64,000 nucleotides of DNA from Candidatus Woesearchaeota archaeon (GTDB lineage Archaea; Nanobdellota; Nanobdellia; SCGC-AAA011-G17; GW2011-AR18): positions 2,198 to 66,197 of the forward strand of contig JAGVZM010000002.1 in the NCBI GenBank assembly GCA_018302545.1, read 5' to 3'. The notes beneath the pieces are model-generated. The model was not told where the DNA came from. It worked only from the letters and a program-made list of their open reading frames with translations, and did no database searches. Made by a program: the position numbers and the translations under genes. Of this stretch, positions 1,394-63,713 are shown piece by piece. The stretch's first letter is position 1. Each line of letters starts with the position of its first letter.

Positions 1394-2842
1394 TTATTGA
1401 ACGCTCCTATTAATACTCCACAATCCAACATCATCATTAACAACTAAGGGTATAAAGTAATTACCCCCATAAGTTAACAAAAACATAAATTTTTCATTAT
1501 TGTTATTAAAATATCTTATTTTAGTTTTTTTATCAAACAAAATATAAGTCACATTATAATTATTAAAATAACTTAAAGTTTTATTTAAATCAGTAGAGTT
1601 CATTATGACTTCAAAGTCATTAATTCTCTGGTCTATATCTGAAACATAAAGAGCATTTTCATCTAAAAAAGTTTTCTTGTTAGCATATTTTATAAAATCA
1701 GCATTACGATAGCTTGAAAAAACAACATCTTGATTGTCATGTGATTTCAAAAGCTTAATAGCTTGAAAATAGTTTTGATCAGGAGAAAAATTAGGAAGTT
1801 CATTATAATAAACTAAAAATGAAAATAAAATACCACAAATCAATACTAACAAAGTCATAAATTTAAATATGCCAGATTTCCAATTGTGTTTAAATAACAT
1901 GGAAAAAGCTAAAGCTGCAAAAAAAGCCATTAAAAAGGAGAGATAAAACAAGATATAATGATTATAAAAAGCAAATAACAACAAAAAGAACAAAACAAGA
2001 TAAATAAAAATAAATCTATAAAATCTATTATAGTAAAAATAAATTCCGATCAAAGCTAAAACAAAAATGAAAAGACTAAACCCATATTTTCCGCCAAATT
2101 CAAATATGATAAAAGAGATTAAGTTTACAAAGGAGAATTCTCTTAAACCCAACAAAAAGTCAGGAGGTAAACCAATAAATAAAAGTCTATAAAATTGTAG
2201 AATAAAAGAAATTAAAAAAAAAGTTAATAGTAAAGAAAATTCCTTATAACTCTTCTTTGTATAAGCATAAAAAAGAAAACTAAGTAAAACAAGGAATAAT
2301 CCAAATATAGAAAAGAAACCACTAAGTAAAAAAGATAAATAACTTAAAATTTTTTTGTCAGTTTTAAATAAATAAAAGCCTAAAATAATAAAAAAAACAG
2401 AAGCAAGATACTTAGTAGATACAGAAAAAAAATATAAAAAAGTAGGAGAGACAATTAAAATTAAAGATGCCATAAACTTTAATTCTGGCTTTACTTTATC
2501 TACTAAAAGATAAAATAAAACAAATGACAAAATACCTAAGAAAAAAGGTAAAATCCTGACTAAAAGTCCTGGACTAAAGCTAATTAGATAATACCAACCA
2601 AATTCTTCTAAGTTGACTCTGCCCCCATAACTAAGTTCATCAAAATTATTAATAGCATTTAAATTAGAGTAATCAGCCAGTCTTAAACTATTATAACTAT
2701 CCCCATCTAGAAGCAATCCATTTGTAGAGTAAAACCTAATATAATGAGATAAGCCTAGTAAAAATATACATAAAACAAGGAGGATCCAAAAATACTTCCT
2801 AGCAGTGAACAAAGTAATACCTCCCTTCTCTAAAAGATTCAA
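1394..2842 (-). CDS. polytopic membrane protein, GT-C fold glycosyltransferase-like (PMT/ArnT-type)
   Basis: more than 10 predicted TM helices, DGDSY acidic motif in first loop, soluble C-terminal domain. Confidence 0.45.
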   Translation of the reverse strand: MNLLEKGGITLFTARKYFWILLVLCIFLLGLSHYIRFYSTNGLLLDGDSYNSLRLADYSNLNAINNFDELSYGGRVNLEEFGWYYLISFSPGLLVRILPFFLGILSFVLFYLLVDKVKPELKFMASLILIVSPTFLYFFSVSTKYLASVFFIILGFYLFKTDKKILSYLSFLLSGFFSIFGLFLVLLSFLFYAYTKKSYKEFSLLLTFFLISFILQFYRLLFIGLPPDFLLGLREFSFVNLISFIIFEFGGKYGFSLFIFVLALIGIYFYYNRFYRFIFIYLVLFFLLLFAFYNHYILFYLSFLMAFFAALAFSMLFKHNWKSGIFKFMTLLVLICGILFSFLVYYNELPNFSPDQNYFQAIKLLKSHDNQDVVFSSYRNADFIKYANKKTFLDENALYVSDIDQRINDFEVIMNSTDLNKTLSYFNNYNVTYILFDKKTKIRYFNNNNEKFMFLLTYGGNYFIPLVVNDDVGLWSINRSVQ

Positions 2843-4307
2843 AACAGAGGTTATTCTTAGTATAACTCAAACCATTTATACCATAGAATTCTTTGGTTTC
2901 ATCAGAAACATAAATAAAATTAATATTATACTTCCTCAATAAATCTAAAGCTAATGCTTCACTAGGAGTAGTATAAATAAGTTCTATATCCCTATATCTA
3001 ACAACTGGATCAGGAGCAACTGCAAAATTAGTGTCTATCACATTTTTCCTCATGCCATAATAATTTATTAGATTACCCTCTTCAAAATTTCCCAAGATAA
3101 CATGCTCAGGTAGAGTATTAATACTTAACCACTTAATTTGCTTTACTTTATTATCTGTTAATTGTCGAGAATTATTAGCAGAATCATAAGAAGGAATAAA
3201 AGATAAAAAAATAAAAGAGAATATTAAAACAACTACGAATACTGTTCTCAATCTAATAAACTTAAAATTACTAAAATAGTCATAAACCAAAGTAAAAGTA
3301 GAAGAAGAAAACACACATAGAACTAAACCTAAAAAAATTAAACCAATAGATATTGATAAAAATCTAAAAAAAAGCAATATTAAAACTGAAAGACCAAAAG
3401 AAGCAAGTAAATAAGCAAGTTTCTTCTTTTCTCTTATAACACTAACATAAACCCCAAAAGCTCCCAAAACTAGAGGTAAAAGACCCAATCCAAAGATTAA
3501 ATCTGTAGAGGAAAATTGTCTAAAGAGATCATTAAAAATATTAGAAGGGATATTATTCCAGAGCAAGCCTAATCCATGTTGCAAAATCATTTTTTTATAT
3601 ATTAAAAGTTGTAATAATAAGATTAGAAAAGAAGAGAAGAAAATTGCTTCCTTTTTAATCCTAGTGGAAGATAAAGCTCCTCCAGATAATAAAAAAAGAT
3701 ACAAAAAACCCATAAAAACAAATAGTAGAGAAGAAGGATGTAATAAAGGCAACAAAAAGGAACCTAGAACAAAAAACCAAAGATATTTCTTATCATCCAA
3801 TCTAGTCAAACTATATACCATAAGTAATAAAAGTGGCAGAATAAATGTGTAAATAGAAAGATTATTTAGAGTTTCATAAAATATTAAAGGATAAAACCCA
3901 AAAAGCAAAGAAGAGAATAAAGCACCAAAAGAATTACCGCTTATATCTTTAGATACTAAATAAACCACAAAAACAGTTAAAGAAATTGCTAACTCAGGAA
4001 TCAACTTCAACATAAAAACAGAACCAAAACTAAATAACGCCATTAAAATATGAAATAAATGAGGATAGATTACATCAATACCACCATAACTCAAAGGATC
4101 ATAAATCATTACAGTTCCTTTTTCTAATATGTGTTCAATATACTTCAAGTGAAAATAAGCATCATCGGTATTGAAATATTCTACCTGAAAAGCAAAGTAC
4201 ATTCTAAATGCTAAAATAAATAAAAAGATAAGTAAAAGTAAAATATGTTCAACTTTTATCTTCTTCATTAGTTTTCTCCCCAGAGGATATATTTTCACTA
4301 TTAACAT
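2799..4307 (-). CDS. polytopic membrane protein, GT-C fold glycosyltransferase-like (dolichyl-phosphate-sugar dependent)
   Basis: about 12 TM helices, NTDDAYFHLKY DD motif in first extracytoplasmic loop, C-terminal soluble domain; real start may be the internal Met (MKKIKVEH). Confidence 0.45.
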   Translation of the reverse strand: MLIVKIYPLGRKLMKKIKVEHILLLLIFLFILAFRMYFAFQVEYFNTDDAYFHLKYIEHILEKGTVMIYDPLSYGGIDVIYPHLFHILMALFSFGSVFMLKLIPELAISLTVFVVYLVSKDISGNSFGALFSSLLFGFYPLIFYETLNNLSIYTFILPLLLLMVYSLTRLDDKKYLWFFVLGSFLLPLLHPSSLLFVFMGFLYLFLLSGGALSSTRIKKEAIFFSSFLILLLQLLIYKKMILQHGLGLLWNNIPSNIFNDLFRQFSSTDLIFGLGLLPLVLGAFGVYVSVIREKKKLAYLLASFGLSVLILLFFRFLSISIGLIFLGLVLCVFSSSTFTLVYDYFSNFKFIRLRTVFVVVLIFSFIFLSFIPSYDSANNSRQLTDNKVKQIKWLSINTLPEHVILGNFEEGNLINYYGMRKNVIDTNFAVAPDPVVRYRDIELIYTTPSEALALDLLRKYNINFIYVSDETKEFYGINGLSYTKNNLCFESFREGRYYFVHC

Positions 4308-5291: not shown

Positions 5292-6389
5292 CTAAAGTTC
5301 AACAGAATACCTTAGTATAGCTGCAACACCACCAAGTTCTTTTAATTGGGATCCTTCTTTAGTATCAAGACTAATAATAAATACATTAGTTCCCGTTTCA
5401 TTAGCTTTTTCTTCATATTCCTCAAGTTTAGAAAAACTCTCACTTAATAATAACTTATCAACTGCCCCATATTCTAAAGATTTTAAAACATCGGCAGGAC
5501 CATAAACCGCCTTATCTGAATTTTTAGATATTAGGGTAAAAAATTCATTAACAATCTTTTTTTCCTTTACAACTTCAGCTTCAGATAAAACATCCTGAGA
5601 TCTTTCAACTAATTCATTTAAACCTTCTTCATCAGTATAAGAGATATCCTTAATTGCTAAAACTTTCTTTCTTAATTCAGCATGAAGATGATTAGAATTA
5701 AAAAAAGTTTCTTTTGTTGGACCCGGACCACCTATTAATATACCCTTAAGATCCTTCCCTATTGCAGCAAATTCAATATTCGCAACATCAGAAACTCTCT
5801 TATAAAACTCATTAGCTGCCTCTTCTCTCAATCTTGCATACCTTTGTTGGGACCAGCCACCAACTTTCAATTTTCCAGGAACAGTAGAACTAAAATCTCT
5901 AATTACTTGTATGCTTTTCCCTTTTAATAAACCAAGTGTAGCTTCTCTATTATCCAAAACAAGCAATCCGTATATTTCATTTATTTGAATCATAGAATCC
6001 AAAGGATCTAAAATAAAAGTTTGATCACATCTATACATCCTAATGTTAACAGGAACAGGAGGCTCAACACTCCAGACTTGTATATCTTGTTTTCCTTCCT
6101 GCTCTGAAACATTACCAGAAAAAGCAGCCAATCCATTAGAAGGAGTAACCTTAAATAATCTCAAATGTCTTATCATCCTTTCTAAAGCATCTTGTACATT
6201 CTGTCTAGTAGTCTTGTCTTTTATATTAGAAGCAGTTCCTTGTTCCTGTGCCAAATGTTGAATTATTTTATTAAGATCATATCCTATAGGAATATAAACT
6301 GTAATAAGCTCAGTATGTCTAGCTCTATATTTTTTAAGTTCATTAACAAATTTCCTTAATTTAAATTGATTTTTTGTGTCCATATTCAA
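5292..6389 (-). CDS. prf1: peptide chain release factor aRF1 (eRF1 family), with GGW in place of GGQ and NIKD in place of NIKS
   Basis: strong colinear similarity to aRF1: ELITVYIP, TASNIKDKTTRQNV (NIKS region), EIYGLLVLDNREATLGLLKGK, VPGKLKVGGWSQQRYARLREEA (GGQ region). Confidence 0.8.
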   Translation of the reverse strand: MNMDTKNQFKLRKFVNELKKYRARHTELITVYIPIGYDLNKIIQHLAQEQGTASNIKDKTTRQNVQDALERMIRHLRLFKVTPSNGLAAFSGNVSEQEGKQDIQVWSVEPPVPVNIRMYRCDQTFILDPLDSMIQINEIYGLLVLDNREATLGLLKGKSIQVIRDFSSTVPGKLKVGGWSQQRYARLREEAANEFYKRVSDVANIEFAAIGKDLKGILIGGPGPTKETFFNSNHLHAELRKKVLAIKDISYTDEEGLNELVERSQDVLSEAEVVKEKKIVNEFFTLISKNSDKAVYGPADVLKSLEYGAVDKLLLSESFSKLEEYEEKANETGTNVFIISLDTKEGSQLKELGGVAAILRYSVEL

Positions 6390-8785: not shown

Positions 8786-9011
8786 TTTATCAACTCCAAA
8801 TAAGATGGTATATAAAATATAATGTAAATGCAATAGCCTAAAGGCTATGCCACCACTACAGAACAAACTAATAAAAACAATACAACACTGAAATTATTGT
8901 TTCTAATCATAAAAAAAAGATAATTAAAAGATATTAAAACCTTTCGATTGAAAACATTTTTAGATTTTAAATAAAAAAGACATAAAAAACTATAATGAAA
9001 AACAGCAAAAA

Positions 9012-9020
9012 CTTTAATAA
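9012..9020 (+). promoter_or_regulatory. TATA-like box upstream of tRNA-Phe
   Basis: CTTTAATAA about 26-34 nt upstream of tRNA 5' end. Confidence 0.3.
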
Positions 9021-9045
9021 GAGTAATTTAATCAAAAACAATATT

Positions 9046-9169
9046 GGGCCTGTAGCTTAACCTGGGAAAGTACACGACTGAAGCTCGTGTTATTGTGACT
9101 GATTAACAGGAATTGTTAGTTGGCAATAAGGTTCAAATGAGCTTGTCTCTGAAATTCCCACCGGGCCCA
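9046..9169 (+). tRNA. tRNA-Phe (anticodon GAA) with two predicted introns in the T-arm (9098..9129 at 51/52; about 9139..9156 at 60/61)
   Basis: acceptor GGGCCTG/CGGGCCC, D-arm GCTT-AACCTGGGA-AAGT, anticodon arm CACGA-CTGAAGC-TCGTG; splicing yields T-arm GTGGG-TTCAAAT-CCCAC; both inserts flanked by 4-bp central helices and 3-nt bulges (BHB). Confidence 0.55.
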
Positions 9170-9329
9170 GATTTTAATTTAAATCCAAAAATAAGATAAA
9201 ATACTTATATCCTACAAAAACATGAGGGTATCTCAACTTGCATTTAATTGTGAATATACTAGAAAGAATTCGGGAATATGGTGCAAATAAAAGAATAATC
9301 AAACTTAAAAAGAAATCAAAATCTAAAAA

Positions 9330-15557: not shown

Positions 15558-16562
15558 ATGAAATTACCGTTTGAAGAAGAAAATAGAAAAATTTTAGTGA
15601 AGAAAGAAGCTTCCACAGATCCCAAATTTGGGAAAAAACCAGAAGAACGAACAGTAAGAGAACTGTTAGAGTCTTCGGTAATATGTTTAAACAAAGTAGA
15701 AGGTCCTTCTTCACACCAAGTAGCAGACTATGCAAAAAAAGCTCTAGAAGTAGAAAAAATCGGTCACGGCGGGACACTTGGAATCTTTTAAGATTAGTGA
15801 AATCCTGCAGTAACTGGGGTTCTACCTATATCTATAGGAAAAGCTACAAGAATAATGGAGGCTCTTCTAAAATCAGGAAAAGAATATATTTGTTTAATGC
15901 ACATACATACTAAAGTTCAACAATCAAAGATACACAAAGTAGCTAAACAATTCTTAGGAAAAATAACCCAAATGCCTCCTGTAAAGTCTGCAATTAAAAG
16001 ACAATTAAGACAAAGAGAAATTTATTACTTAGAAATCCTAGAAATAAAAGATCAAGATGTACTTTTCAAAGTAGGATGTCAAGCAGGAACCTACATAAGA
16101 ACACTCTGTGTTGGATTTGGAAAAGAATTAGGAACCAATGCGCACATGCAGCAATTGATAAGAACAAAGGCAGGACCATTTAATGACAAAGAATGGTATT
16201 CTCTACAAGACATAAAAGACGCATATCAATTATACAGAGAAGAAAAAGAAGAACAATTAAAGAAAATTCTAAAACCAATAGAGTTTGCCATACAACATTT
16301 ACCTAAAGTATGGGTAAATGATAATACTATAGATTCAATATGCCATGGCGCATCATTAAAAGTCCCAGGAATAATAAAAGTCCATTCAAAGATAGAAAAA
16401 GAAGAATTAGTAGCTATAATGACTTTAAAAGAAGAATTAGTTGCTTTAGGAACATCAAAGATGAATTCAGAAGAAATGATAAAAAATCAAAAAGGATTAG
16501 CAATAAAAACAACAAAAGTCTTTATGGATCGAAATACATACCCTAATTTTAAAAAAGCTTAA
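15558..16562 (+). CDS. cbf5: H/ACA RNP pseudouridine synthase Cbf5 (TruB family), interrupted by a 21-nt BHB intron at 15781..15801; spliced product about 327 aa
   Basis: exon 1 ends ...EVEKIGHGGTL + G; exon 2 supplies AT-CCT-GCA... giving [35 protein letters not shown]; colinear with Cbf5 through the C-terminal PUA domain. Confidence 0.8.
15781..15801 (+). other. predicted archaeal BHB (bulge-helix-bulge) pre-mRNA intron in cbf5
   Basis: GAATCTTTTAAGATTAGTGAA holds TAA, TAG and TGA in frame; exon CACT pairs intron AGTG (4-bp central helix); 3-nt bulges TG|G and AA|A; 6-bp outer helices GCGGGA/TCCTGC and AATCTT/AAGATT. Confidence 0.75.
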
Positions 16563-21942: not shown

Positions 21943-23814
21943 ATGACAAATCCAGAAAATCAACTAATAGACCAAAGATTACAAAAATTAGAAGAAATAA
22001 GAAAGTTAGGAATAGAGCCATATCCCTATTCATACAAAACAAATACTACAGCAAAAGAAATTAAAGAAAAGTTCTCAAAATTAAAGAATGAAGAAAAAAC
22101 TAAAGCTAAAGTATCCCTCTCTGGAAGATTAATGACTATTAGGAGAATGGGTAAAGCATCTTTTGCTCACTTACAAGATCACACAGACAAGGTACAATTC
22201 TACATAAGAGAAGATGAAGTAGGAAACTCTGAATATGAAATATTTAAAAAATTAGATATGGGCGACATTATAGGAATAGAAGGAATAATATTCAAAACAA
22301 AGACAGGAGAAGTTTCTATATGGATAAAAAAATTAACTTTCTTATCTAAGTGCCTACGTCCCTTACCAGAAAAATGGCATGGATTAAAAGATGTAGAAGC
22401 AAGATACAGACAAAGATATCTAGACTTAATAGCAAATCCAGAAGTAAAGGAAATATTCATAAAAAGATCTAAAATAGTATCTGCTGTAAGAGAATTTTTA
22501 GAGATGAAAGGTTATATTGAAGTAGACATTCCAACTTTACAACCTCAATATGGGGGAGCAAATGCAAAACCATTCAAAACCCATATTAATGCTTGGAATA
22601 TAGATCTATATTTGAGTATTTCACCAGAGTTATATTTAAAAAAATTAATAGTTGGAGGATTTGATAAGGTCTTTACTATTTGTAAAAATTTTAGGAATGA
22701 AGGGGTTGACAAAACGCATAATCCAGAATTCACAATGATGGAGTGTTATGCAATAAATGAAGACTATAATTATTTATTAGAATTAATCGAAGATTTATAC
22801 ATATATGCAGCTGAAAAAGTTTTAGGAACAACAAAGATAACTTATCAAGGACAGAAAATTGATTTGAAAAAACCATGGAAAAGACTAACAATGTATGAAT
22901 CACTAAAACAATATGCTAATTTAGATGTCTCAAAAATGTCAGATAAAGAATTAATAAAACAAGCAAACTCACATGGGGTTCAAATAGAGAAAAATACACC
23001 AAGAGGATTAATAATTGAAGCATTATTTGGAGAACTAGTAGAAAAACATCTTATTCAGCCCACTCACCTAATAGATCATCCAAAAGAGACAACACCACTA
23101 TGCAAAGTAAAAAGGGGAGATGAATGTCTAATCGAAAGAGTCGAACCTTATATTAATGGATGGGAAATTGGAAATGGTTATTCTGAATTAAACGATCCAA
23201 AGATACAATATGAATTATTCAAAGAACAAGAAGAAAGAGGAAGAGCGGGAAATGAGGAATTCCATCCAATGGACGAAGATTATGTTAAAGCTTTAGAAAC
23301 AGGTTTACCTCCAACAGCAGGAGTTGGCTTAGGAATTGATAGAATGGTAATGTTACTAACAGATTCCACTACAATAAGAGATGTAATATTATTCCCTACA
23401 ATGCGTCCAGAAAATAAAGATGAGGAAAAAATAACAAAAGAAAATATTTTAGAACAAGAAGGAATAATAGTTGGCAAAGTAGTAAAAATAGAGAAACACC
23501 CAAATGCAGATAATTTAAAAATATGTACTATAAACATAGGAAATAAAGAGGTAATTTCTGTAACAAACTGTAAAAATGCAAGAGAAGGAATGATAATTCC
23601 AACAATATTAACAGGAACAAAATATTTTGATTGGAAAGGTTCAGGAAAAATATTAGTAGCAAAAAGATCAGAGTTAAGAGGAATAGAAAGCAACGCTATT
23701 ATGGGCGCTGGAGAAGAAATAGGATTGCCAACTCCAGAAGACAAAAGAGAATTAATATATGAACTAAAATCCGGAAAACCAGGAGACAAAGTAAAAGATC
23801 ATATACATAGATAA
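21943..23814 (+). CDS. lysS: lysine--tRNA ligase, class II, fused to C-terminal EMAP-II/Trbp111-like tRNA-binding domain
   Basis: N-terminal OB anticodon-binding domain; motif 2 FRNEGVDKTHNPEFTMMECY; motif 3 GLGIDRMVMLLTDSTTIRDVILFP; C-terminal VGKVVKIEKHPNADNLKICTINIG. Confidence 0.85.
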   Translation: MTNPENQLIDQRLQKLEEIRKLGIEPYPYSYKTNTTAKEIKEKFSKLKNEEKTKAKVSLSGRLMTIRRMGKASFAHLQDHTDKVQFYIREDEVGNSEYEIFKKLDMGDIIGIEGIIFKTKTGEVSIWIKKLTFLSKCLRPLPEKWHGLKDVEARYRQRYLDLIANPEVKEIFIKRSKIVSAVREFLEMKGYIEVDIPTLQPQYGGANAKPFKTHINAWNIDLYLSISPELYLKKLIVGGFDKVFTICKNFRNEGVDKTHNPEFTMMECYAINEDYNYLLELIEDLYIYAAEKVLGTTKITYQGQKIDLKKPWKRLTMYESLKQYANLDVSKMSDKELIKQANSHGVQIEKNTPRGLIIEALFGELVEKHLIQPTHLIDHPKETTPLCKVKRGDECLIERVEPYINGWEIGNGYSELNDPKIQYELFKEQEERGRAGNEEFHPMDEDYVKALETGLPPTAGVGLGIDRMVMLLTDSTTIRDVILFPTMRPENKDEEKITKENILEQEGIIVGKVVKIEKHPNADNLKICTINIGNKEVISVTNCKNAREGMIIPTILTGTKYFDWKGSGKILVAKRSELRGIESNAIMGAGEEIGLPTPEDKRELIYELKSGKPGDKVKDHIHR

Positions 23815-32089: not shown

Positions 32090-33397
32090 TTAATGACGGT
32101 TTGATTTCTTCTTAACATTACTAGAAGCCATTTTAAGCATTTTTAAAGCATAATTAACAGGATTCTTGCATTTACTACAAATACCGTCATCACATTTAAT
32201 GCTCATAGTTTTATAATAACTAGGGTTATCACAATTAGGAGGCAAAACCAATTTCTTCTGCCTTTTAAACCAACTTATCTGAGCCTTAACATAACCTTCT
32301 CTTAAAGGTTCAGCATTTCTTTTATTCCACTCAAGCATAAACTTCTCTATATCTTCTAGATTCCAACCAACATTTTGTAAAAAGTTAACTAAAATAAAAA
32401 TGCCTCTCTTCCTTCCATCTTCCTCTACGCCTTGCATTAATTTTAAAATACAAGGAGGAAAATAATCAACCTTTATTGGAACCTTAGGAGCCTCAAACTT
32501 TCTAGTAATTGTTATTTGTTTCTCTTCAATATAATTAGTTTTTCTAGCCCAATCAAAAGCTTGTATCAACAAATTTTTAGCTTCATCCTTTTCAACATTC
32601 TCTGAATCTAAAAATTTCAATCCAAATTTGACATTATCTATCTTTGCCTGTCTAATGTCAAAATCCTTAATAGTCTTCAAAGGTATACTAACTAACCCAG
32701 ATTTTTCATTTATACTATAAGCACATCTAAACAAATGTCTACTAGATATTAAAACACTATCGATATCTACTAACTTAAAAGGATCCAATTTATTCTCTTT
32801 AATAACATCTTCAACTTTTTTTCCAACACTCTTAGCAGCATCTTCTACTGTATGAGTCTCTAAAATCTTAGCACTTAAATGTTCTTTAATCATATTCTTA
32901 AGATATTCAGAAATAACTCTCACACCATCAGGAAAATAATCTTTTATATTAACATTATTAACATTAGAAGGGAAAGCTTCAAAAGGAATACCAATATGGA
33001 ATCCACGATTACCTGAATATTTTATAGAAAAATTCTTAACATCATTAAACCTTAAAGCATCTTCTAAAAATTCAGCGCACATAATACTAAAGTTTAAATT
33101 TTTACTATCCAAATCCAAGATACAACTCCAACCAATCCTTAAGTTATCTAATTCTTTCTTACTCAAACCACTTTCAAGCATCATAGGATCTTTCCAAATT
33201 TCCTCACTAACATGAAAAGAAGTCATACCTTGTTTAACTAAATCATTAATATCTCCCTGAAAATTAACAATCTCTGGTCTTTTTCCCCTAATATCTCCAA
33301 ACCAAGCCTGAACCTCTCTATTTTGAGATAGTCTCATCAATTCTTTTTGAACTTCGTTTTGAGAATAATACTCTTTTATTTTTTTAAGATCAGACAT
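32090..33397 (-). CDS. priS: archaeo-eukaryotic DNA primase small-subunit (PriS)-like protein with C-terminal Cys-cluster extension
   Basis: AEP motifs ILDLDSKN (DxD) and YSGNRGFHIGIPF (SGxRGxH); C-terminal CDNPSYYKTMSIKCDDGICSKC. Confidence 0.55.
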   Translation of the reverse strand: MSDLKKIKEYYSQNEVQKELMRLSQNREVQAWFGDIRGKRPEIVNFQGDINDLVKQGMTSFHVSEEIWKDPMMLESGLSKKELDNLRIGWSCILDLDSKNLNFSIMCAEFLEDALRFNDVKNFSIKYSGNRGFHIGIPFEAFPSNVNNVNIKDYFPDGVRVISEYLKNMIKEHLSAKILETHTVEDAAKSVGKKVEDVIKENKLDPFKLVDIDSVLISSRHLFRCAYSINEKSGLVSIPLKTIKDFDIRQAKIDNVKFGLKFLDSENVEKDEAKNLLIQAFDWARKTNYIEEKQITITRKFEAPKVPIKVDYFPPCILKLMQGVEEDGRKRGIFILVNFLQNVGWNLEDIEKFMLEWNKRNAEPLREGYVKAQISWFKRQKKLVLPPNCDNPSYYKTMSIKCDDGICSKCKNPVNYALKMLKMASSNVKKKSNRH

Positions 33398-55093: not shown

Positions 55094-55202
55094 AGTCCCG
55101 TCGTCTAGATTAGTTTAAAAACTAAAGACAACGGCCCAGGATCGAGGACTCTGGATCAATAGGAGAAATCCTTGGACGGCAGTTCGAATCTGCCCGGGAC
55201 TA
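55094..55202 (+). tRNA. tRNA-Gln (anticodon CTG) with two predicted introns: D-loop (55109..55131, 23 nt) and canonical 37/38 (55155..55167, 13 nt)
   Basis: acceptor AGTCCCG/CGGGACT + A; T-arm GGCAG-TTCGAAT-CTGCC; anticodon arm GAGGA-CTCTGGA-TCCTT after splicing; D-stem strand GTCT pairs intronic AGAC mimic (central BHB helix) with 7-bp intron hairpin. Confidence 0.6.
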
Positions 55203-55337: not shown

Positions 55338-57527
55338 ATGATAAAAAACAACAAACAGATAGAAGAAGGAACTTTTAAATATCTAGAACTATCAAAGAAA
55401 AAAATGAAGAAAAAGTTTTATATCACAACACCAATTTACTATGTAAATGATAAACCTCATGTTGGTCATGCATATACTACAATAATAGCAGATATTCTAG
55501 CAAGGTGGCATAGATTAAAACAAGAAGATGTATTTTTCCTAACTGGATTAGATGAAAACGGACAAAAAACAGTCGAAGCTTCTATAAAGTTCGGATTTAA
55601 AAGTCCACAAGCATGGTGTGATTATATAGCAGAAGAATATCTAAAAACATGGAAAAATCTAAACATAAGCAATGATGATTTTATAAGAACAACAGAAGAA
55701 AGACACCATAAACTTTCTATAGAGTTCACAAAAAAAGTTCAAAAAAAAGGAGACATCTATAAAGGAAACTATATAGGATTATATTGTGAAGGTTGTGAAG
55801 CATACATAACAGAATCAGAATTAACAAAAGAAGGTTTTTGTCCAAATCACAATAAAAAACCAAAGGAGTTACATGAAGAAAATTACTTTTTCAAATTAAG
55901 TAAATATGATAAACAATTACTAGAACATATAGAGAATAATCCAAGTTTCATACAACCCGAGTTCAGGAAAAAAGAAATTATTAATTTCATAAAGCAAGGA
56001 TTAAAAGATATAAGTATCTCTAGGCAGAGTTTAACATGGGGAATTCCTTTTCCTGGAGATGAATCTCAAAGAATTTATGTTTGGTTTGATGCATTATTAA
56101 ATTATTTGCACCCAAAGGAATATTGGCCTGCAAATATACAAATGATGGGTAAAGAAATAATAAAATTTCATTGTATAATCTGGCCGGCAATGCTTCTCTC
56201 AGCCGGATATAAACTTCCAAAAAAAGTATTTGCTCATGGATGGTTAACAATAAATGGAGAAAAGATGTCTAAATCTTTAGGCAATGCTATAGACCCAAAT
56301 CACCTTACTAAAACATTTGGAACAGATGCATTAAGATACTATTATGCAAGAGAAGTACCTTTAGGAAATGATGGAGATTTTTCAGAAAAACAATTAGTAG
56401 CTAGATTAAACAATGAGCTAGCAAATGAACTAGGCAACTTAATTTCAAGAACCTTAACTTTAATAGAAAAAAAATTAAATTCAGAAATAAAAAAAGATAA
56501 GGTAGATAAAACATTATTCAAAGATTTAAAGGTTAAACAAATCGACAAGTTCATCCAAGATATAGAACCCCATAATGCAATTGCATTAATTTTTCATTTT
56601 ATACATTCATGTAATCAATATATTAGCGAAAAAGAGCCATGGAACATCAATAAAGAAAATGAATTAAATAAAATACTCTATAATTTAACAGATGCTATTA
56701 GAATAATATCAATATTGCTCTATTCATTTCTACCAGAAACATGTGAAAAGATTCATAAACAATTATCTTTAGACACTAAAAAATTAAGTTTAGCTCAGGC
56801 TATTCCTGGAATATTAACAACAACAAAAATAAACAAAGGAGAAATTTTATTCCAAAAAGTAATTTTCAAAGAAACAAAAGATGTTTTCAAAAATCCTAAA
56901 TGTTATGTAACTCCAGAAGTGCAAAGATTAGGAATTAAAGTTAAATTTGCAGAATTAATCAACCTAAATATAAAAAAGAAACATATGGGTTTAGAAAAAT
57001 TAAAATCTGAAATAAAGAAAAGTTTCAAACCGAACATAAGAGTACTAAAAGGATATGATAATTACTCTAGATTATTAAACATAGAAGAAGGACAATGCTC
57101 AGTCTACAATTTAATGGATTTAGTTGAAGAAAACGGAAAACTTCCAACAATAAATACAGCTGTAGATAGTTATAATATTATATCTCTTGCTAAAAGCCTT
57201 GTTGTAGGTGCTCATGATAGAGAACATGTAAAGGGACCAGTGAGGTTTGATATTTTTAAAGGAAATGAATTATACATCCCATTATTCACAAATGAAAAAA
57301 AATCAGTTAATAAAGGAGAATTTGGTTGTATTGATGATGAAAAAGTTCTTTGTAGACTAGATATTAAACAAGGCGATCAAACAAAGGTGACAGAAAAAAC
57401 AAAGAATATTATTCTTTATGTACAAGGAAATGAATATACTTCAGAAGAATATTTGCAGGAAGCAATAGAAGAAATTTGTAAGTTAATGATTAGATTTTGT
57501 GATGGAGAATATAAAATATTAAATTAA
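55338..57527 (+). CDS. metG: methionine--tRNA ligase (MetRS) with C-terminal B3/B4-like domain
   Basis: HVGHAYTT (HIGH), EKMSKSLGN (KMSKS), anticodon-binding helical domain; C-terminal about 200 aa with INTAVDSYNIISLAKSLVVGAHDREHVKGPVRFD resembling the PheT B3/4 domain. Confidence 0.85.
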   Translation: MIKNNKQIEEGTFKYLELSKKKMKKKFYITTPIYYVNDKPHVGHAYTTIIADILARWHRLKQEDVFFLTGLDENGQKTVEASIKFGFKSPQAWCDYIAEEYLKTWKNLNISNDDFIRTTEERHHKLSIEFTKKVQKKGDIYKGNYIGLYCEGCEAYITESELTKEGFCPNHNKKPKELHEENYFFKLSKYDKQLLEHIENNPSFIQPEFRKKEIINFIKQGLKDISISRQSLTWGIPFPGDESQRIYVWFDALLNYLHPKEYWPANIQMMGKEIIKFHCIIWPAMLLSAGYKLPKKVFAHGWLTINGEKMSKSLGNAIDPNHLTKTFGTDALRYYYAREVPLGNDGDFSEKQLVARLNNELANELGNLISRTLTLIEKKLNSEIKKDKVDKTLFKDLKVKQIDKFIQDIEPHNAIALIFHFIHSCNQYISEKEPWNINKENELNKILYNLTDAIRIISILLYSFLPETCEKIHKQLSLDTKKLSLAQAIPGILTTTKINKGEILFQKVIFKETKDVFKNPKCYVTPEVQRLGIKVKFAELINLNIKKKHMGLEKLKSEIKKSFKPNIRVLKGYDNYSRLLNIEEGQCSVYNLMDLVEENGKLPTINTAVDSYNIISLAKSLVVGAHDREHVKGPVRFDIFKGNELYIPLFTNEKKSVNKGEFGCIDDEKVLCRLDIKQGDQTKVTEKTKNIILYVQGNEYTSEEYLQEAIEEICKLMIRFCDGEYKILN

Positions 57528-62455: not shown

Positions 62456-62580
62456 CGCCCTAGGCGGGACTCGAACCTGCGACCCCTTGATCTCTGCTCA
62501 GTAAGTAACAGTTTCACAGTCGTTATGTAGAACACAAGTGCTCTACCTGTTGCTCCCTAATAGGTCTGAGCTACTAGGGC
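62456..62580 (-). tRNA. 125-nt tRNA with two predicted introns (D-loop 62550..62565, 16 nt; anticodon region about 62492..62527, 36 nt); anticodon probably TCT (Arg), identity uncertain
   Basis: acceptor GCCCTAG/CTAGGGC + G, T-arm GCAGG-TTCGAGT-CCCGC (one A-C mismatch), D-stem GCTC/GAGC; D-loop intron has intronic GAGC mimic pairing GCTC plus 3-nt bulges; mature anticodon arm CTTGT-GTTCTAA-TCAAG. Confidence 0.55.
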
Positions 62581-62779: not shown

Positions 62780-63337
62780 ATGATAGAAGCAAGATGGAAA
62801 ATAGAGTCTTATGAAGATACAAGAAATAAAATTCTAGAACTAAAAGCAAAACAAAAAGGAAAATACTCAGCAACAGATATAATTTTTATTCCTAAGAATA
62901 ATAAAAGCCTAAATAAAGAATTTATAAGAGTAAGATCCTACATTGTAAACAATTGGAATACCAAAAATGTTGTGCTAACACATAAAGAAACAAGATGGAT
63001 TAATAATTTTAAAGAGGATATAATTGCAATTAAAAGAGAATTTGACAAAGAACAAGAAGCTATAAAATTTATAGAAGAACAATATAAAAATAGCTTAAAA
63101 GAGTTAGTAAGATTCAAAAGGGAAGGAGAAGATTTTGAAATAAATAATAACAAATTATTTTTAGAAACATTAGAATATTTAGGACCAACAATAGAAATAG
63201 AAACAGATTCAAAAGAATTATTAATAGATTTAGAAAAACAACTAGCTTTAAAAGAAAGAATAACACAGTCTATACCAGAAACAATAAGGTTATTGAAAAA
63301 CAATGAAAGTTTATCACGGTTCTCCAAAAAAGATTGA
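62780..63337 (+). CDS. hypothetical protein, possibly CYTH-like (triphosphate tunnel) domain
   Basis: alternating E/K pattern near N-terminus (IEARWKIE) and later IEIETD; weak. Confidence 0.3.
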   Translation: MIEARWKIESYEDTRNKILELKAKQKGKYSATDIIFIPKNNKSLNKEFIRVRSYIVNNWNTKNVVLTHKETRWINNFKEDIIAIKREFDKEQEAIKFIEEQYKNSLKELVRFKREGEDFEINNNKLFLETLEYLGPTIEIETDSKELLIDLEKQLALKERITQSIPETIRLLKNNESLSRFSKKD

Positions 63338-63713
63338 AGTTTTAATTCCAAAACAAGCAAAAGGTCATAATGGTTTTCAGAATTTAGAAGCAGTATTCCT
63401 AACAGATAATTTCTTAGAAGCTAGTTTATATGCAATAGGAAAATCACTCAAGGGAAAAGCGCATTTTGGAATACAAAAAGGTAAATTAGTAATTATAGGA
63501 AACGCCTCAACTGCTTCAGAGGGGTATGTATATGAGTTTGATCTTCCAGAAAGTGAATTGATTAAAGGAGAACAGAAAGAAGATTTGGGAGTTTATGCAT
63601 ATCAAAATACTCTAATCTGCCAAGATCCAAAAATTGTCAAAATTGAAGAAATTCAAAGTTACATAATTTATGTAAAAAATAAAAATGAATTAATGCAAGT
63701 TCTCTACAGTTAA
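63303..63713 (+). CDS. hypothetical protein
   Basis: ORF only. Confidence 0.35.
   Translation: MKVYHGSPKKIEVLIPKQAKGHNGFQNLEAVFLTDNFLEASLYAIGKSLKGKAHFGIQKGKLVIIGNASTASEGYVYEFDLPESELIKGEQKEDLGVYAYQNTLICQDPKIVKIEEIQSYIIYVKNKNELMQVLYS

Follow-up and report, generated by a model that had tools for sequence, protein, structure and literature searches.

The multiple-intron tRNA genes of the Thermoproteales were reportedly described by Sugahara et al. in 2007 and 2008. In these archaea (Pyrobaculum, Thermofilum, and Caldivirga), a tRNA gene can carry up to three short introns of the BHB or HBh' type at noncanonical sites that include 59/60 and 3/4 (PMC4033280, PMC4090602, PMC8450103), and sequential BHB formation has been documented for closely spaced introns (PMC8450103). 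Both multi-intron tRNAs and T-arm introns are well documented (PMC4033280, PMC12397907); eukaryotic multi-intron tRNA genes likewise have several short BHB-dependent introns per gene, including in the T-arm, although their hosts and enzyme are eukaryotic and some of the genes are permuted. Among the DPANN archaea, ARMAN-1/2 possess multi-intron tRNAs together with an epsilon2 EndA, and Nanoarchaeum equitans possesses split tRNAs (PMC3239211, PMC5829648). The BHB geometry is what EndA recognizes (PMC5829648, PMC4090602). The DPANN EndAs, including one from a Woesearchaeota genome, have been reported to be of the alpha4 type with an L3 loop, a form that goes together with increased disruption of tRNA genes and with predicted tRNA sets that are incomplete (PMC5829648). 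The incompleteness of DPANN tRNA sets in the output of standard predictors has been attributed explicitly to unidentified disrupted tRNA genes (PMC3239211, PMC5829648).

We found that positions 9046 to 9169 on the forward strand of the window, by which we mean the whole 64,000-nucleotide (64-kb) stretch of DNA that was analyzed, constitute a 124-nt tRNA-Phe(GAA) gene, the T-arm of which is broken by two short inserts (Table 1). The host is an archaeon of the Woesearchaeota (DPANN). We place the probability at about 86% that this is a functional, and probably the sole, tRNA-Phe(GAA) of this archaeon, with exons of 52, 8, and 14 nt and two BHB introns in the T-arm. The multi-intron archaeal tRNA is a known kind, of which the present gene is another example: its introns, at 51/52 and 59/60, both occupy noncanonical sites of a single co-linear gene. 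The exons are co-linear (cis-spliced) and contiguous within 124 nt, being neither split nor permuted, unlike those of the split tRNAs of N. equitans. As in the Thermoproteales, the introns are closely spaced, such that removal of the first would precede formation of the second BHB; which introns are present changes from one close relative to the next; similar introns are seen in different genes; and default tRNA finders miss the genes. In contrast to those hyperthermophilic crenarchaea, the host here is a mesophilic DPANN archaeon with AT-rich DNA (~29% GC), and both introns lie in the T-arm, leaving an 8-nt micro-exon between them. Site 59/60 has already been catalogued as a noncanonical intron position (PMC4090602), and site 51/52 is absent from the sites listed in a review of Thermoproteales-type introns. 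With the other DPANN archaea the gene shares the superphylum and relaxed BHB motifs at noncanonical sites. On the basis of the literature, one would expect the enzyme to be an EndA of the alpha4 type that carries the DPANN L3 loop, as opposed to the (alpha-beta)2 form with the crenarchaeal loop (PMC5829648). The published catalogues that we consulted list neither the present gene, nor the combination of 51/52 with 59/60, nor the site turnover in Woesearchaeales tRNA-Phe.

Table 1. Positions in the window of the exons and introns of the tRNA-Phe(GAA) gene and of its flanking elements
Feature	Positions	Strand	Description	Basis
Promoter-like element	9007..9020	+	A-rich stretch, then TATA-like box TTTAATAA (9013-9020)	read from sequence
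Exon 1 (52 nt)	9046..9097	+	acceptor 5' strand GGGCCTG, D-arm, anticodon arm, variable loop, G49-U50-G51	
Intron 1 (32 nt)	9098..9129	+	position 51/52, relaxed HBh' motif	
Exon 2, 8-nt micro-exon GGTTCAAA	9130..9137	+	G52, G53, T-loop 54-59	
Intron 2 (18 nt)	9138..9155	+	position 59/60	
Exon 3 (14 nt)	9156..9169	+	U60, CCCAC, acceptor 3' strand CGGGCCC, discriminator A73	
T-run TTTT	9172..9175	+	3 nt after discriminator	read from sequence

A sequence-only reading of this DNA had recognized tRNA-Phe(GAA) in the 5' two thirds of the gene, and exon 1 does hold an intact acceptor 5' strand, D-arm, anticodon arm (CACGA-CTGAAGC-TCGTG, with the anticodon GAA), and variable loop (TTATT). Without exon 2, neither the T-loop nor the T-stem pairs 52-62 and 53-61 could form; the CCCAC of exon 3 is the 3' strand of the T-stem, and CCA is not encoded. 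Of the two intron positions given by that reading, 51/52 stands; the other, 60/61, has to be moved to 59/60, as the bulges it drew itself put the second cut after A59. Taking the second insert as 9138-9155 or as 9139-9156 gives an identical product because positions 9138 and 9156 both carry a T. The TATA-like box TTTAATAA precedes the mature 5' end by 33 nt, and an AAAA-N-TTTAAKAA box is also found about 33 to 34 nt upstream of the tRNA-Phe of the relatives L012/L018, L020, and L005. Judged by its sequence, the box would act as a promoter element, and the T-run is likely to be an archaeal transcription stop. A sigma-70 promoter scan was set aside as irrelevant to archaea.

Removal of both introns in silico yields a 74-nt product with the T-arm GTGGG-TTCAAAT-CCCAC, which ARAGORN calls as tRNA-Phe(gaa). 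The program rejects the gene as it stands and also each form from which a single insert has been removed, in agreement with the earlier claim that the T-arm and the mature tRNA emerge only with both inserts out. A brute-force splicing of 194,721 variants, covering all 25 intergenic gaps on both strands, recovered a tRNA at this locus only when two inserts were removed, the best pair being 9098-9129 and 9138-9155. The Rfam tRNA model, run with permissive filters on a 311-nt sub-scan, spans exactly 9046-9169 with 32.4 bits against a gathering score of 29 and a 61-nt T-arm insertion. In the 64-kb window, the gene is missed by default ARAGORN (with and without -i) and by Rfam at gathering thresholds, and a permissive Rfam scan of the whole window misses it too because the filters tighten with more sequence. 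Splicing without a helix requirement gave dozens of “valid” tRNAs at a third locus; ARAGORN acceptance alone is therefore weak, and BHB quality and comparison with orthologues are needed.

With respect to BHB quality, both inserts show a 4-bp helix, two 3-nt bulges, and cuts that restore the mature RNA, and the helix, the bulges, and the 9-bp intron helix are exactly as first read. In intron 1, the central helix joins exonic ATTG (9092-9095) to intronic CAAT (9124-9127), with the bulges TG|A (9096-9098) and AA|G (9128-9130), and the inner helix pairs 9099-9107 with 9115-9123 (9 bp, extendable to 11, with pair probabilities of >0.9). The outer helix is limited to one G.U pair, and the motif is therefore of the relaxed HBh' form and not the full hBHBh' form. 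In intron 2, exonic TTCA (9132-9135) pairs with intronic TGAA (9150-9153), flanked by the bulges AA|T (9136-9138) and AT|T (9154-9156) and by a 3-bp inner helix (GAG, 9139-9141, with CTC, 9147-9149). Its outer helix is the T-stem itself, which measures 2 bp as long as intron 1 is present and 5 bp once that intron has been excised, and intron 2 then takes the strict hBHBh' form. When the inserts were shuffled with the splice sites held fixed, the 4-bp helix combined with the observed inner helix arose at frequencies of 5e-6 for insert 1 and 9e-4 for insert 2. BHB shapes as such are common by chance in this AT-rich window, which contains 675 strict BHB motifs versus 434 to 510 in shuffles; in a strict hBHBh' scan of the whole window, the cbf5 gene alone stands out, and the other matches are within the shuffle range.

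The inserts could be bounded differently, either as a single composite insertion of ~59 nt or through a partial excision that leaves an enlarged variable region. In keeping with this, ARAGORN accepts removals of the inner part of insert 1 (9104-9122, 9106-9117), which give tRNAs of 82 to 89 nt, and the local MFE structure has the insert-1 stem in a shifted register. However, the 8 to 9 nt between the inserts, GGTTCAAAT, are the conserved T-stem/T-loop sequence of all orthologues at the same place; as these nucleotides have to stay in the tRNA, a single insertion is excluded. Moreover, the relative L012 carries no insert other than insert 1, whose excision in the 51/52 register restores a normal tRNA, and the 5-nt variable loop and 5-bp T-stem of the orthologues are obtained only by removing 9098-9129 together with 9138-9155. 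We consequently regard other boundaries as very unlikely.

When the BHBs were tested by thermodynamic folding, the MFE of the full precursor was an alternative fold. The AA of the 3' bulge of intron 1 can pair with U44-U45 instead. For intron 2, the local BHB fold (-8.2 kcal/mol) compares with a local MFE of -8.5 kcal/mol, and its probability is ~0 in the full-precursor ensemble and 0.09 to 0.16 after removal of intron 1; the competing pairings are GAGCUU with AAGCUC of the anticodon arm and CUGGGAA with UUCCCA. This alternative precursor fold has -40.7 kcal/mol, versus -27.0 kcal/mol for the cloverleaf with both BHBs. Nearest-neighbor models penalize 3-nt bulges, and folding is cotranscriptional and protein assisted; for these reasons, we treat the alternative fold of the model as a caveat to, rather than a refutation of, the predicted BHBs. 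A guide-like role for the match between the intron-2 GAGCUU and the anticodon-arm AAGCUC was rejected, as chance alone would give about 0.2 6-mer matches of this kind.

Both inserts align as clean gaps with six intron-less orthologues, to which exon 1 aligns without gaps, every stem being paired and covarying. The cloverleaf is 100% paired in eight sequences, with 13 of the 21 pairs changed on both sides, and its covariation score was reached by none of 500 shuffles; the covarying pairs include T-stem pairs across exons 1, 2, and 3. The tRNA-Phe of L020 has an identical, uninterrupted T-arm (GTGGG-TTCAAAT-CCCAC). A homologous intron of 30 nt is present at site 51/52 in L012/L018 (a Nanoarchaeota MAG), and its similarity to intron 1 was reached by none of 20,000 shuffles. 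The two introns differ by compensatory changes, with A-U replaced by G-C in the central helix and C-G by U-A in the inner helix; this structural comparison involves two distinct sequences only, and its pairs were counted by hand, since MAFFT misplaces the 2-nt gap of L012 and renders column-wise counting unusable. No homologue of intron 2 was found in the relatives searched, and it is known from one sequence only. Other tRNA-Phe orthologues in relatives carry BHB inserts at 3/4, 15/16, 18/19, 27/28, and 46/47, and in six tRNA-Phe orthologues, the central helix of every insert (10 of 10) is fully paired (4 of 4 pairs) in the register whose excision yields a tRNA. A regular expression for an intact D-arm to anticodon missed the interrupted orthologues of L005 and L020, both of which were recovered by a brute-force BHB scan. 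Relatives with a tRNA-Phe at the syntenic ValRS position also have it interrupted, at other sites; where synteny was traced via the downstream HD-domain gene, L023 to L026 had no tRNA in the equivalent gaps. Taking these findings together, a tRNA-Phe(GAA) with two BHB introns inside its T-arm, as originally proposed, is supported by in silico splicing, the Rfam match, the shuffles, the clean gaps, and T-stem covariation, as well as by the 51/52 intron homologue and a DPANN host with frequent BHB-type interruptions.

These data also bear on whether the locus is a decaying tRNA-Phe pseudogene with two insertions, with the work being done by a separate intact tRNA-Phe elsewhere. Such a view would account for the failure of standard tools to call the gene and for the thermodynamic weakness of the intron-2 BHB, and the inspected sequence is 64 kb of a genome. 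Against it, the conserved tRNA nucleotides (invariant positions) and exon stem pairs are all intact and covary with those of orthologues, both inserts are placed in register with the BHB rule, insert 1 has a conserved counterpart with compensatory changes in a second lineage, and the promoter-like box and T-run are retained. Further, the orthologues at the syntenic ValRS position are interrupted at other sites, and interruption is therefore the norm here rather than a sign of decay. There is no second tRNA-Phe in the window by ARAGORN, permissive Rfam, or the brute-force scan, and a complete 737-kb Woesearchaeota chromosome has one tRNA-Phe pattern match. Hence, a pseudogene appears unlikely. 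A phage BLAST search and a pattern scan of viral contigs gave no matches. An assembly or chimera artifact comes to mind as the source is a MAG, but three contigs (ENA ERZ27254754, ENA ERZ27254845, and Logan SRR2090155), which derive from different samples and assemblers, are 100% identical over 4.4 to 6.6 kb including the tRNA-Phe, and the inserts carry specific RNA-structural properties; we consider an artifact barely conceivable.

For the gene with two T-arm BHB introns, we propose the following splicing route. Its own BRE/TATA-type promoter would give a precursor of ~124 nt plus leader and trailer, in which A46-G49 (variable loop and T-stem) would pair with the intronic CAAU. The resulting 4 bp would be the central helix of intron 1, with the 3-nt bulges UG|A and AA|G on its two sides and, at its end, the stable 9- to 11-bp intron hairpin of the relaxed HBh' motif. 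EndA would cut two nucleotides into each bulge, and an RtcB-type ligase would join G51 to G52, completing the 5-bp T-stem that is the outer helix of the full hBHBh' motif for intron 2. In that motif, the T-loop UUCA would pair with the intronic UGAA, with the bulges AA|U and AU|U and an inner GAG/CUC hairpin; a second cut and ligation, of A59 to U60, would then produce the 74-nt tRNA, to which CCA would be added. Of the two possible orders, we favor the removal of intron 1 first, since the micro-exon then stays covalently joined to exon 1 and an outer helix is supplied for intron 2. Pfam searches of 70 of the 72 ORFs of the window (62780-63337 and 63303-63713 were left out) found no EndA (tRNA_int_endo) or RtcB domains. 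The lack of an endonuclease gene in the ORFs scanned would fit inserts that are kept as an expanded T-arm or that are removed by a route other than EndA, such as self-splicing or another ribozyme. However, the inserts, at 32 and 18 nt, are far too small for group I or group II introns, with their ribozyme core of at least 200 nt, and they match no Rfam intron family even at an E value of ≤10. An unspliced T-arm would lack the T-stem and contiguous T-loop, which are needed for the D-loop/T-loop tertiary interaction and for binding to EF-1alpha and the ribosome. The precise BHB geometry of the orthologue inserts also speaks for EndA, and we hold retention or another route to be highly improbable.

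If this is the sole tRNA-Phe, the cell cannot translate unless two EndA/RtcB reactions take place in succession, one on each side of an 8-nt micro-exon, and this would constrain both the splicing order and the range of substrates open to the DPANN endonuclease; one of the reactions involves a relaxed HBh' motif, not expected as a substrate of strict alpha4 enzymes. “Missing” tRNAs of DPANN genomes are often taken to reflect an incomplete genome or dependence on a host. Kaneta et al. suspected unidentified disrupted genes behind them (PMC5829648), and the present window is a concrete worked example. The BHB models of tRNAscan-SE had only Crenarchaeota, Euryarchaeota, and Thaumarchaeota in their training set (PMC8450103).

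Across six lineages, the tRNA-Phe orthologues are interrupted at seven different sites, and this scatter gives a picture of intron turnover like that of the Thermoproteales in a lineage that is unrelated and mesophilic and has a reduced genome. The homologous 51/52 intron is shared by two lineages whose ValRS proteins are 68% identical and is absent from closer relatives of each. Together with the position of the cbf5 intron described below, these observations would point to site-directed insertion and not only to vertical descent with repeated loss, through candidate processes such as reverse splicing by EndA and a ligase or homing by recombination. That BHB introns are actively mobile in this Woesearchaeales lineage is a tentative idea, and we judge it on balance somewhat doubtful. 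If true, it would make the spread of archaeal BHB introns directly testable, with DPANN metagenomes densely sampling close relatives.

The window contains four tRNA genes, of which ARAGORN and Rfam at standard thresholds find one; the three missed genes contain seven BHB inserts in total. Besides tRNA-Phe, these are a tRNA-Gln with two introns and a probable tRNA-Asn with three, each needing BHB splicing. The cbf5 gene in the window has a 21-nt BHB intron (15781-15801) with a strict hBHBh' motif, and cbf5 is uninterrupted in all sampled relatives. In crenarchaea, a BHB intron of the cbf5 pre-mRNA is known from the Desulfurococcales and Sulfolobales, where it is lineage specific (PMC2738675). 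The intron here lies at the same codon position and the same nucleotide: both are short BHB introns that split the catalytic Asp codon between its first and second letters, and in both splicing is required for an active enzyme (PMC2738675). They differ in the host, here a DPANN archaeon, and in the motif, which is more relaxed in the crenarchaeal version (PMC10485636). The predicted intron would thus take BHB mRNA splicing beyond the known small crenarchaeal group.

The sequence-only reading had described a tRNA-Phe(GAA) gene with two bulge-helix-bulge (BHB) introns in its T-arm, and its transcription of the locus proved exact on re-reading. The stretch 9046-9097 supplies the 5' strand of the acceptor stem, the D-arm, an anticodon arm carrying GAA, a variable loop of 5 nt, and the T-stem's first three nucleotides. 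Neither ARAGORN nor Rfam at default thresholds gave a match at this locus. When Rfam was run permissively on the surrounding 311 nt, the tRNA covariance model covered 9046-9169 end to end at 32.4 bits, above the gathering score of 29, and placed 61 inserted nucleotides in the T-arm. As had been claimed, removal of both inserts (9098-9129 and 9139-9156) leaves 74 nt, which ARAGORN identifies as tRNA-Phe(gaa); it rejects the gene with neither insert removed and with either one removed alone. A scripted BHB search recovered the two motifs precisely. The site 51/52 stood for intron 1, while the 60/61 assigned to intron 2 gives way to 59/60, where the BHB register places it; the spliced product is unchanged because T9138 = T9156. 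With two minor corrections, namely this site and the relaxed form (HBh', without the full outer helix) of intron 1, the gene is real and the interpretation correct, and we put the probability that it is a functional two-intron tRNA-Phe gene, as judged from sequence, at about 0.86.

Predicted introns and inserts in the window and in related contigs (L numbers), together with the aRF1/Pelota-like genes
Feature	Location	Strand	tRNA site	Details
tRNA-Phe intron 1, window	9098-9129 (32 nt)	+	51/52	Central helix ATTG/CAAT; bulges TG↓A and AA↓G; inner helix 9-11 bp; outer helix one G.U pair (relaxed HBh')
tRNA-Phe intron 2, window	9138-9155 (18 nt)	+	59/60	Central helix TTCA/TGAA; bulges AA↓T and AT↓T; inner helix 3 bp (GAG/CTC); outer helix = T-stem, 2 bp before and 5 bp after intron 1 removal
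tRNA-Phe, L012/L018	L012 1522-1625	-	51/52	
tRNA-Phe, L008	2646-2733		3/4	
tRNA-Phe, L017/L019	L017 2428-2559		15/16 + 46/47	
tRNA-Phe, L020	about 2830-2920	-	18/19	
tRNA-Phe, L005	about 2680-2790	-	18/19 + 27/28	76% ValRS relative
cbf5, window	15558-16562	+		Intron 15781-15801
tRNA-Gln intron, window	55109-55131 (23 nt)	+	15/16	D-loop; GUCU/AGAC
tRNA-Gln intron, window	55155-55167 (13 nt)	+	37/38	Canonical; CUCU/GGAG
Probable tRNA-Asn insert, window	62550-62565 (16 nt)	-	15/16	
Probable tRNA-Asn insert, window	62513-62534 (22 nt)	-	30/31	Only 3/4 central-helix pairs
Probable tRNA-Asn insert, window	62492-62505 (14 nt)	-	37/38	
aRF1/Pelota-like, L004	5378-6898			Intein
aRF1/Pelota-like, L005	7834-8373+			Intein
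aRF1/Pelota-like, L020	5403-7763			Intein
aRF1/Pelota-like, window	5292-6389	-		365 aa; intein-free, likewise L007/L021 copies

The gene sits in a 463-nt gap without genes (8867-9329) between those for ValRS, divergently oriented, and an HD-domain protein. Since both flanking proteins match, at 100% identity, NCBI entries named "Candidatus Woesearchaeota archaeon," the host is a DPANN archaeon. Among the archaeal translation genes of the window (G+C ~29%) are those for ValRS, an aRF1/Pelota-like factor, and MetRS, and a ribosomal-protein operon with SecY. Three "independent" contigs (L001-L003), 100% identical to the window throughout, exclude an assembly artefact and are uninformative on selection. 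Chance is a further alternative: strict BHB-shaped motifs are common in such AT-rich DNA (675 in the window versus 434-510 in shuffles), and in-silico splicing without helix constraints produces many spurious "tRNAs." We therefore place weight on geometry combined with the restoration of a conserved gene. With splice sites fixed, the 4-bp helix and the inner helix as observed arose together in 5e-6 of trials on shuffled intron 1 and in 9e-4 on shuffled intron 2. A SPLITS-like brute-force test, which took one or two BHB-compatible segments out of each of the 25 intergenic gaps on either strand (194,721 variants), returned a tRNA at the tRNA-Phe locus only upon deletion of two segments, the cleanest solution being 9098-9129 plus 9138-9155.

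Orthologs came from two pattern searches, a degenerate one for this type of tRNA-Phe (9 loci in a collection of species-representative genomes) and one that required an insertion (3 metagenome contigs); additional ones were located through ValRS synteny. One contig labeled "Acidobacteriota bacterium" (L010; DATGWN010000029.1) has an archaeal-type tRNA-Phe nearly identical to those of Woesearchaeota and is probably mis-binned. Both window inserts are clean gaps in the alignment with 6 intron-less orthologs, in which 100% of the cloverleaf cells are paired and 13 of 21 pairs show both-sided changes; the covariation score of 0.684 was reached by 0/500 shuffles and collapses with slid partners. 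The T-stem pairs hold (5/5), though spread over exons 1, 2, and 3 in the window, and the relative L020 has an identical T-arm (GTGGG-TTCAAAT-CCCAC), uninterrupted. Intron 1 has a counterpart in a Nanoarchaeota MAG (H52-bin077_1) and a Hainich groundwater contig (L012/L018), where deletion of a 30-nt intron in the same 51/52 register restores tRNA-Phe. The likeness of the two introns lies above all 20,000 shuffles, and that of their unconstrained 5' halves alone was beaten or matched by only 10/20,000. In the L012/L018 intron the central helix reads GTTG/CAAC where the window has ATTG/CAAT (A-U to G-C); the last pair of the inner helix is U-A rather than C-G, and two pairs that are G.U in the window are Watson-Crick. 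Congeners of L012 (L013/L007; flanks 86.5% and exons 98% identical) are without the intron. Intron 2, represented by one sequence, had no homolog among the genomes and contigs searched.

The pattern around this single gene merits more attention than the gene itself. Insert-bearing tRNA-Phe orthologs come from related Woesearchaeota/Nanoarchaeia, 6 others being without inserts; all ten inserts, those of the window included, have 4/4 central-helix pairs and 3-nt bulges at the tRNA-restoring register, and ARAGORN accepts every spliced product. The 15/16 site, at which the intron pairs with the 5' strand of the D-stem, recurs in three different tRNAs: Phe, Gln, and Asn. The tRNA-Gln(CUG) gene (55094-55202, +), missed by ARAGORN and at Rfam thresholds, has two BHB introns, and its 74-nt spliced form is accepted by ARAGORN. 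A locus on the opposite strand (62456-62580, -) is probably, if not certainly, a hidden tRNA-Asn(GUU) with three inserts. Spliced otherwise, it would give a His or Arg tRNA, to which we still allow some probability, and the T-stem of the Asn form contains one A.C mismatch; the Asn solution ranks best among 255 legal anticodon-arm solutions and is backed by comparison with the intact tRNA-Asn of contig L008, including a compensatory 28-42 change.

Dependence on such splicing extends to a protein-coding gene, cbf5. The local MFE fold of its 21-nt insert, which splits the catalytic Asp codon after the first letter, is itself a textbook strict hBHBh' motif (outer helix 6 bp, CACU/AGUG, inner helix 5 bp; -13.6 kcal/mol), the top strict BHB of the window. 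The spliced product (327 aa) regains full DKCLD, TruB_N, and PUA domains and matches Pyrococcus Cbf5 (3lwo_A; E = 2.6e-104) gap-free across the junction. Among the 120 best Cbf5 homologs, the other 119 have no interruption, and these include the proteins of the closest genomes; hence, the interruption is lineage-specific. The crenarchaeal cbf5 pre-mRNA intron occupies the same site (PMC2738675); according to a 2023 review, this intron was still known only from one small set of related archaea (PMC10485636), and none of the literature searched reports a BHB intron in cbf5 outside Crenarchaeota. Evidently, several essential genes of this organism depend on BHB splicing, which makes splicing of the tRNA-Phe more credible.

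We propose that transcription probably starts from a conserved A-rich/TTTAAKAA box 33 nt upstream and that EndA would cleave at the four bulge sites, followed by ligation by RtcB; neither enzyme turned up in Pfam scans of 70 of the 72 ORFs mapped in the window. Removal of intron 1 first would be favored, because its hairpin is the best-supported ensemble element (P > 0.9), because its loss completes the T-stem that forms the outer helix of intron 2, and because the 8-nt micro-exon would stay covalently attached. Exactly such an order dependency was described for closely spaced introns by the authors of tRNAscan-SE 2.0 (PMC8450103). The relaxed motif of intron 1 would call for an enzyme of broad specificity; alpha4-type EndAs that carry an "L3" loop were reported throughout DPANN by Kaneta et al., who associated them with more tRNA disruption (PMC5829648). 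The full precursor has an MFE of -40.7 kcal/mol versus -27.0 for the cloverleaf plus both BHBs, and the ensemble probability of the intron-2 BHB is negligible before intron 1 removal and 0.09-0.16 after; in isolation, this BHB is iso-energetic with the local MFE (-8.2 versus -8.5). The alternative fold is driven by pairing of GAGCUU in intron 2 (9139-9144) with AAGCUC of the anticodon loop/stem (9081-9086, positions 35-40), a complementarity that is probably coincidental (~0.2 such matches expected by chance).

tRNA genes that hold several BHB introns at non-canonical sites are well known from Thermoproteales, Korarchaeum, M. kandleri, N. equitans, and ARMAN (PMC4033280), the 59/60 site is already listed (PMC4090602), and both T-arm introns (PMC12397907) and tRNA disruption in DPANN (PMC5829648) have been noted before; the two-intron tRNA-Phe thus belongs to a known kind. 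The literature searched held no record of the 51/52 and 59/60 pairing with an 8-nt micro-exon, of site-by-site turnover among Woesearchaeales tRNA-Phe orthologs, or of a DPANN cbf5 intron; as its coverage was incomplete, we regard these as leads rather than priority claims.

In 3 relatives, an intein (Intein_splicing, with or without LAGLIDADG) lies within the aRF1/Pelota-like gene adjoining ValRS, and the proteins there span 506-786 aa. A single 435-aa ORF (32090-33397, -) has matches to the families of both primase subunits, small (PriS) and large (PriL), and looks like a fused primase, of a kind described for Nanoarchaeum. Two aminoacyl-tRNA synthetases display unusual domain fusions: MetRS (55338-57527, +) has a C-terminal B3/4 domain, normally a PheRS beta subunit domain, and a class II Asp/Asn/Lys-type synthetase (21943-23814, +) has a C-terminal tRNA_bind (Trbp111-like) domain.
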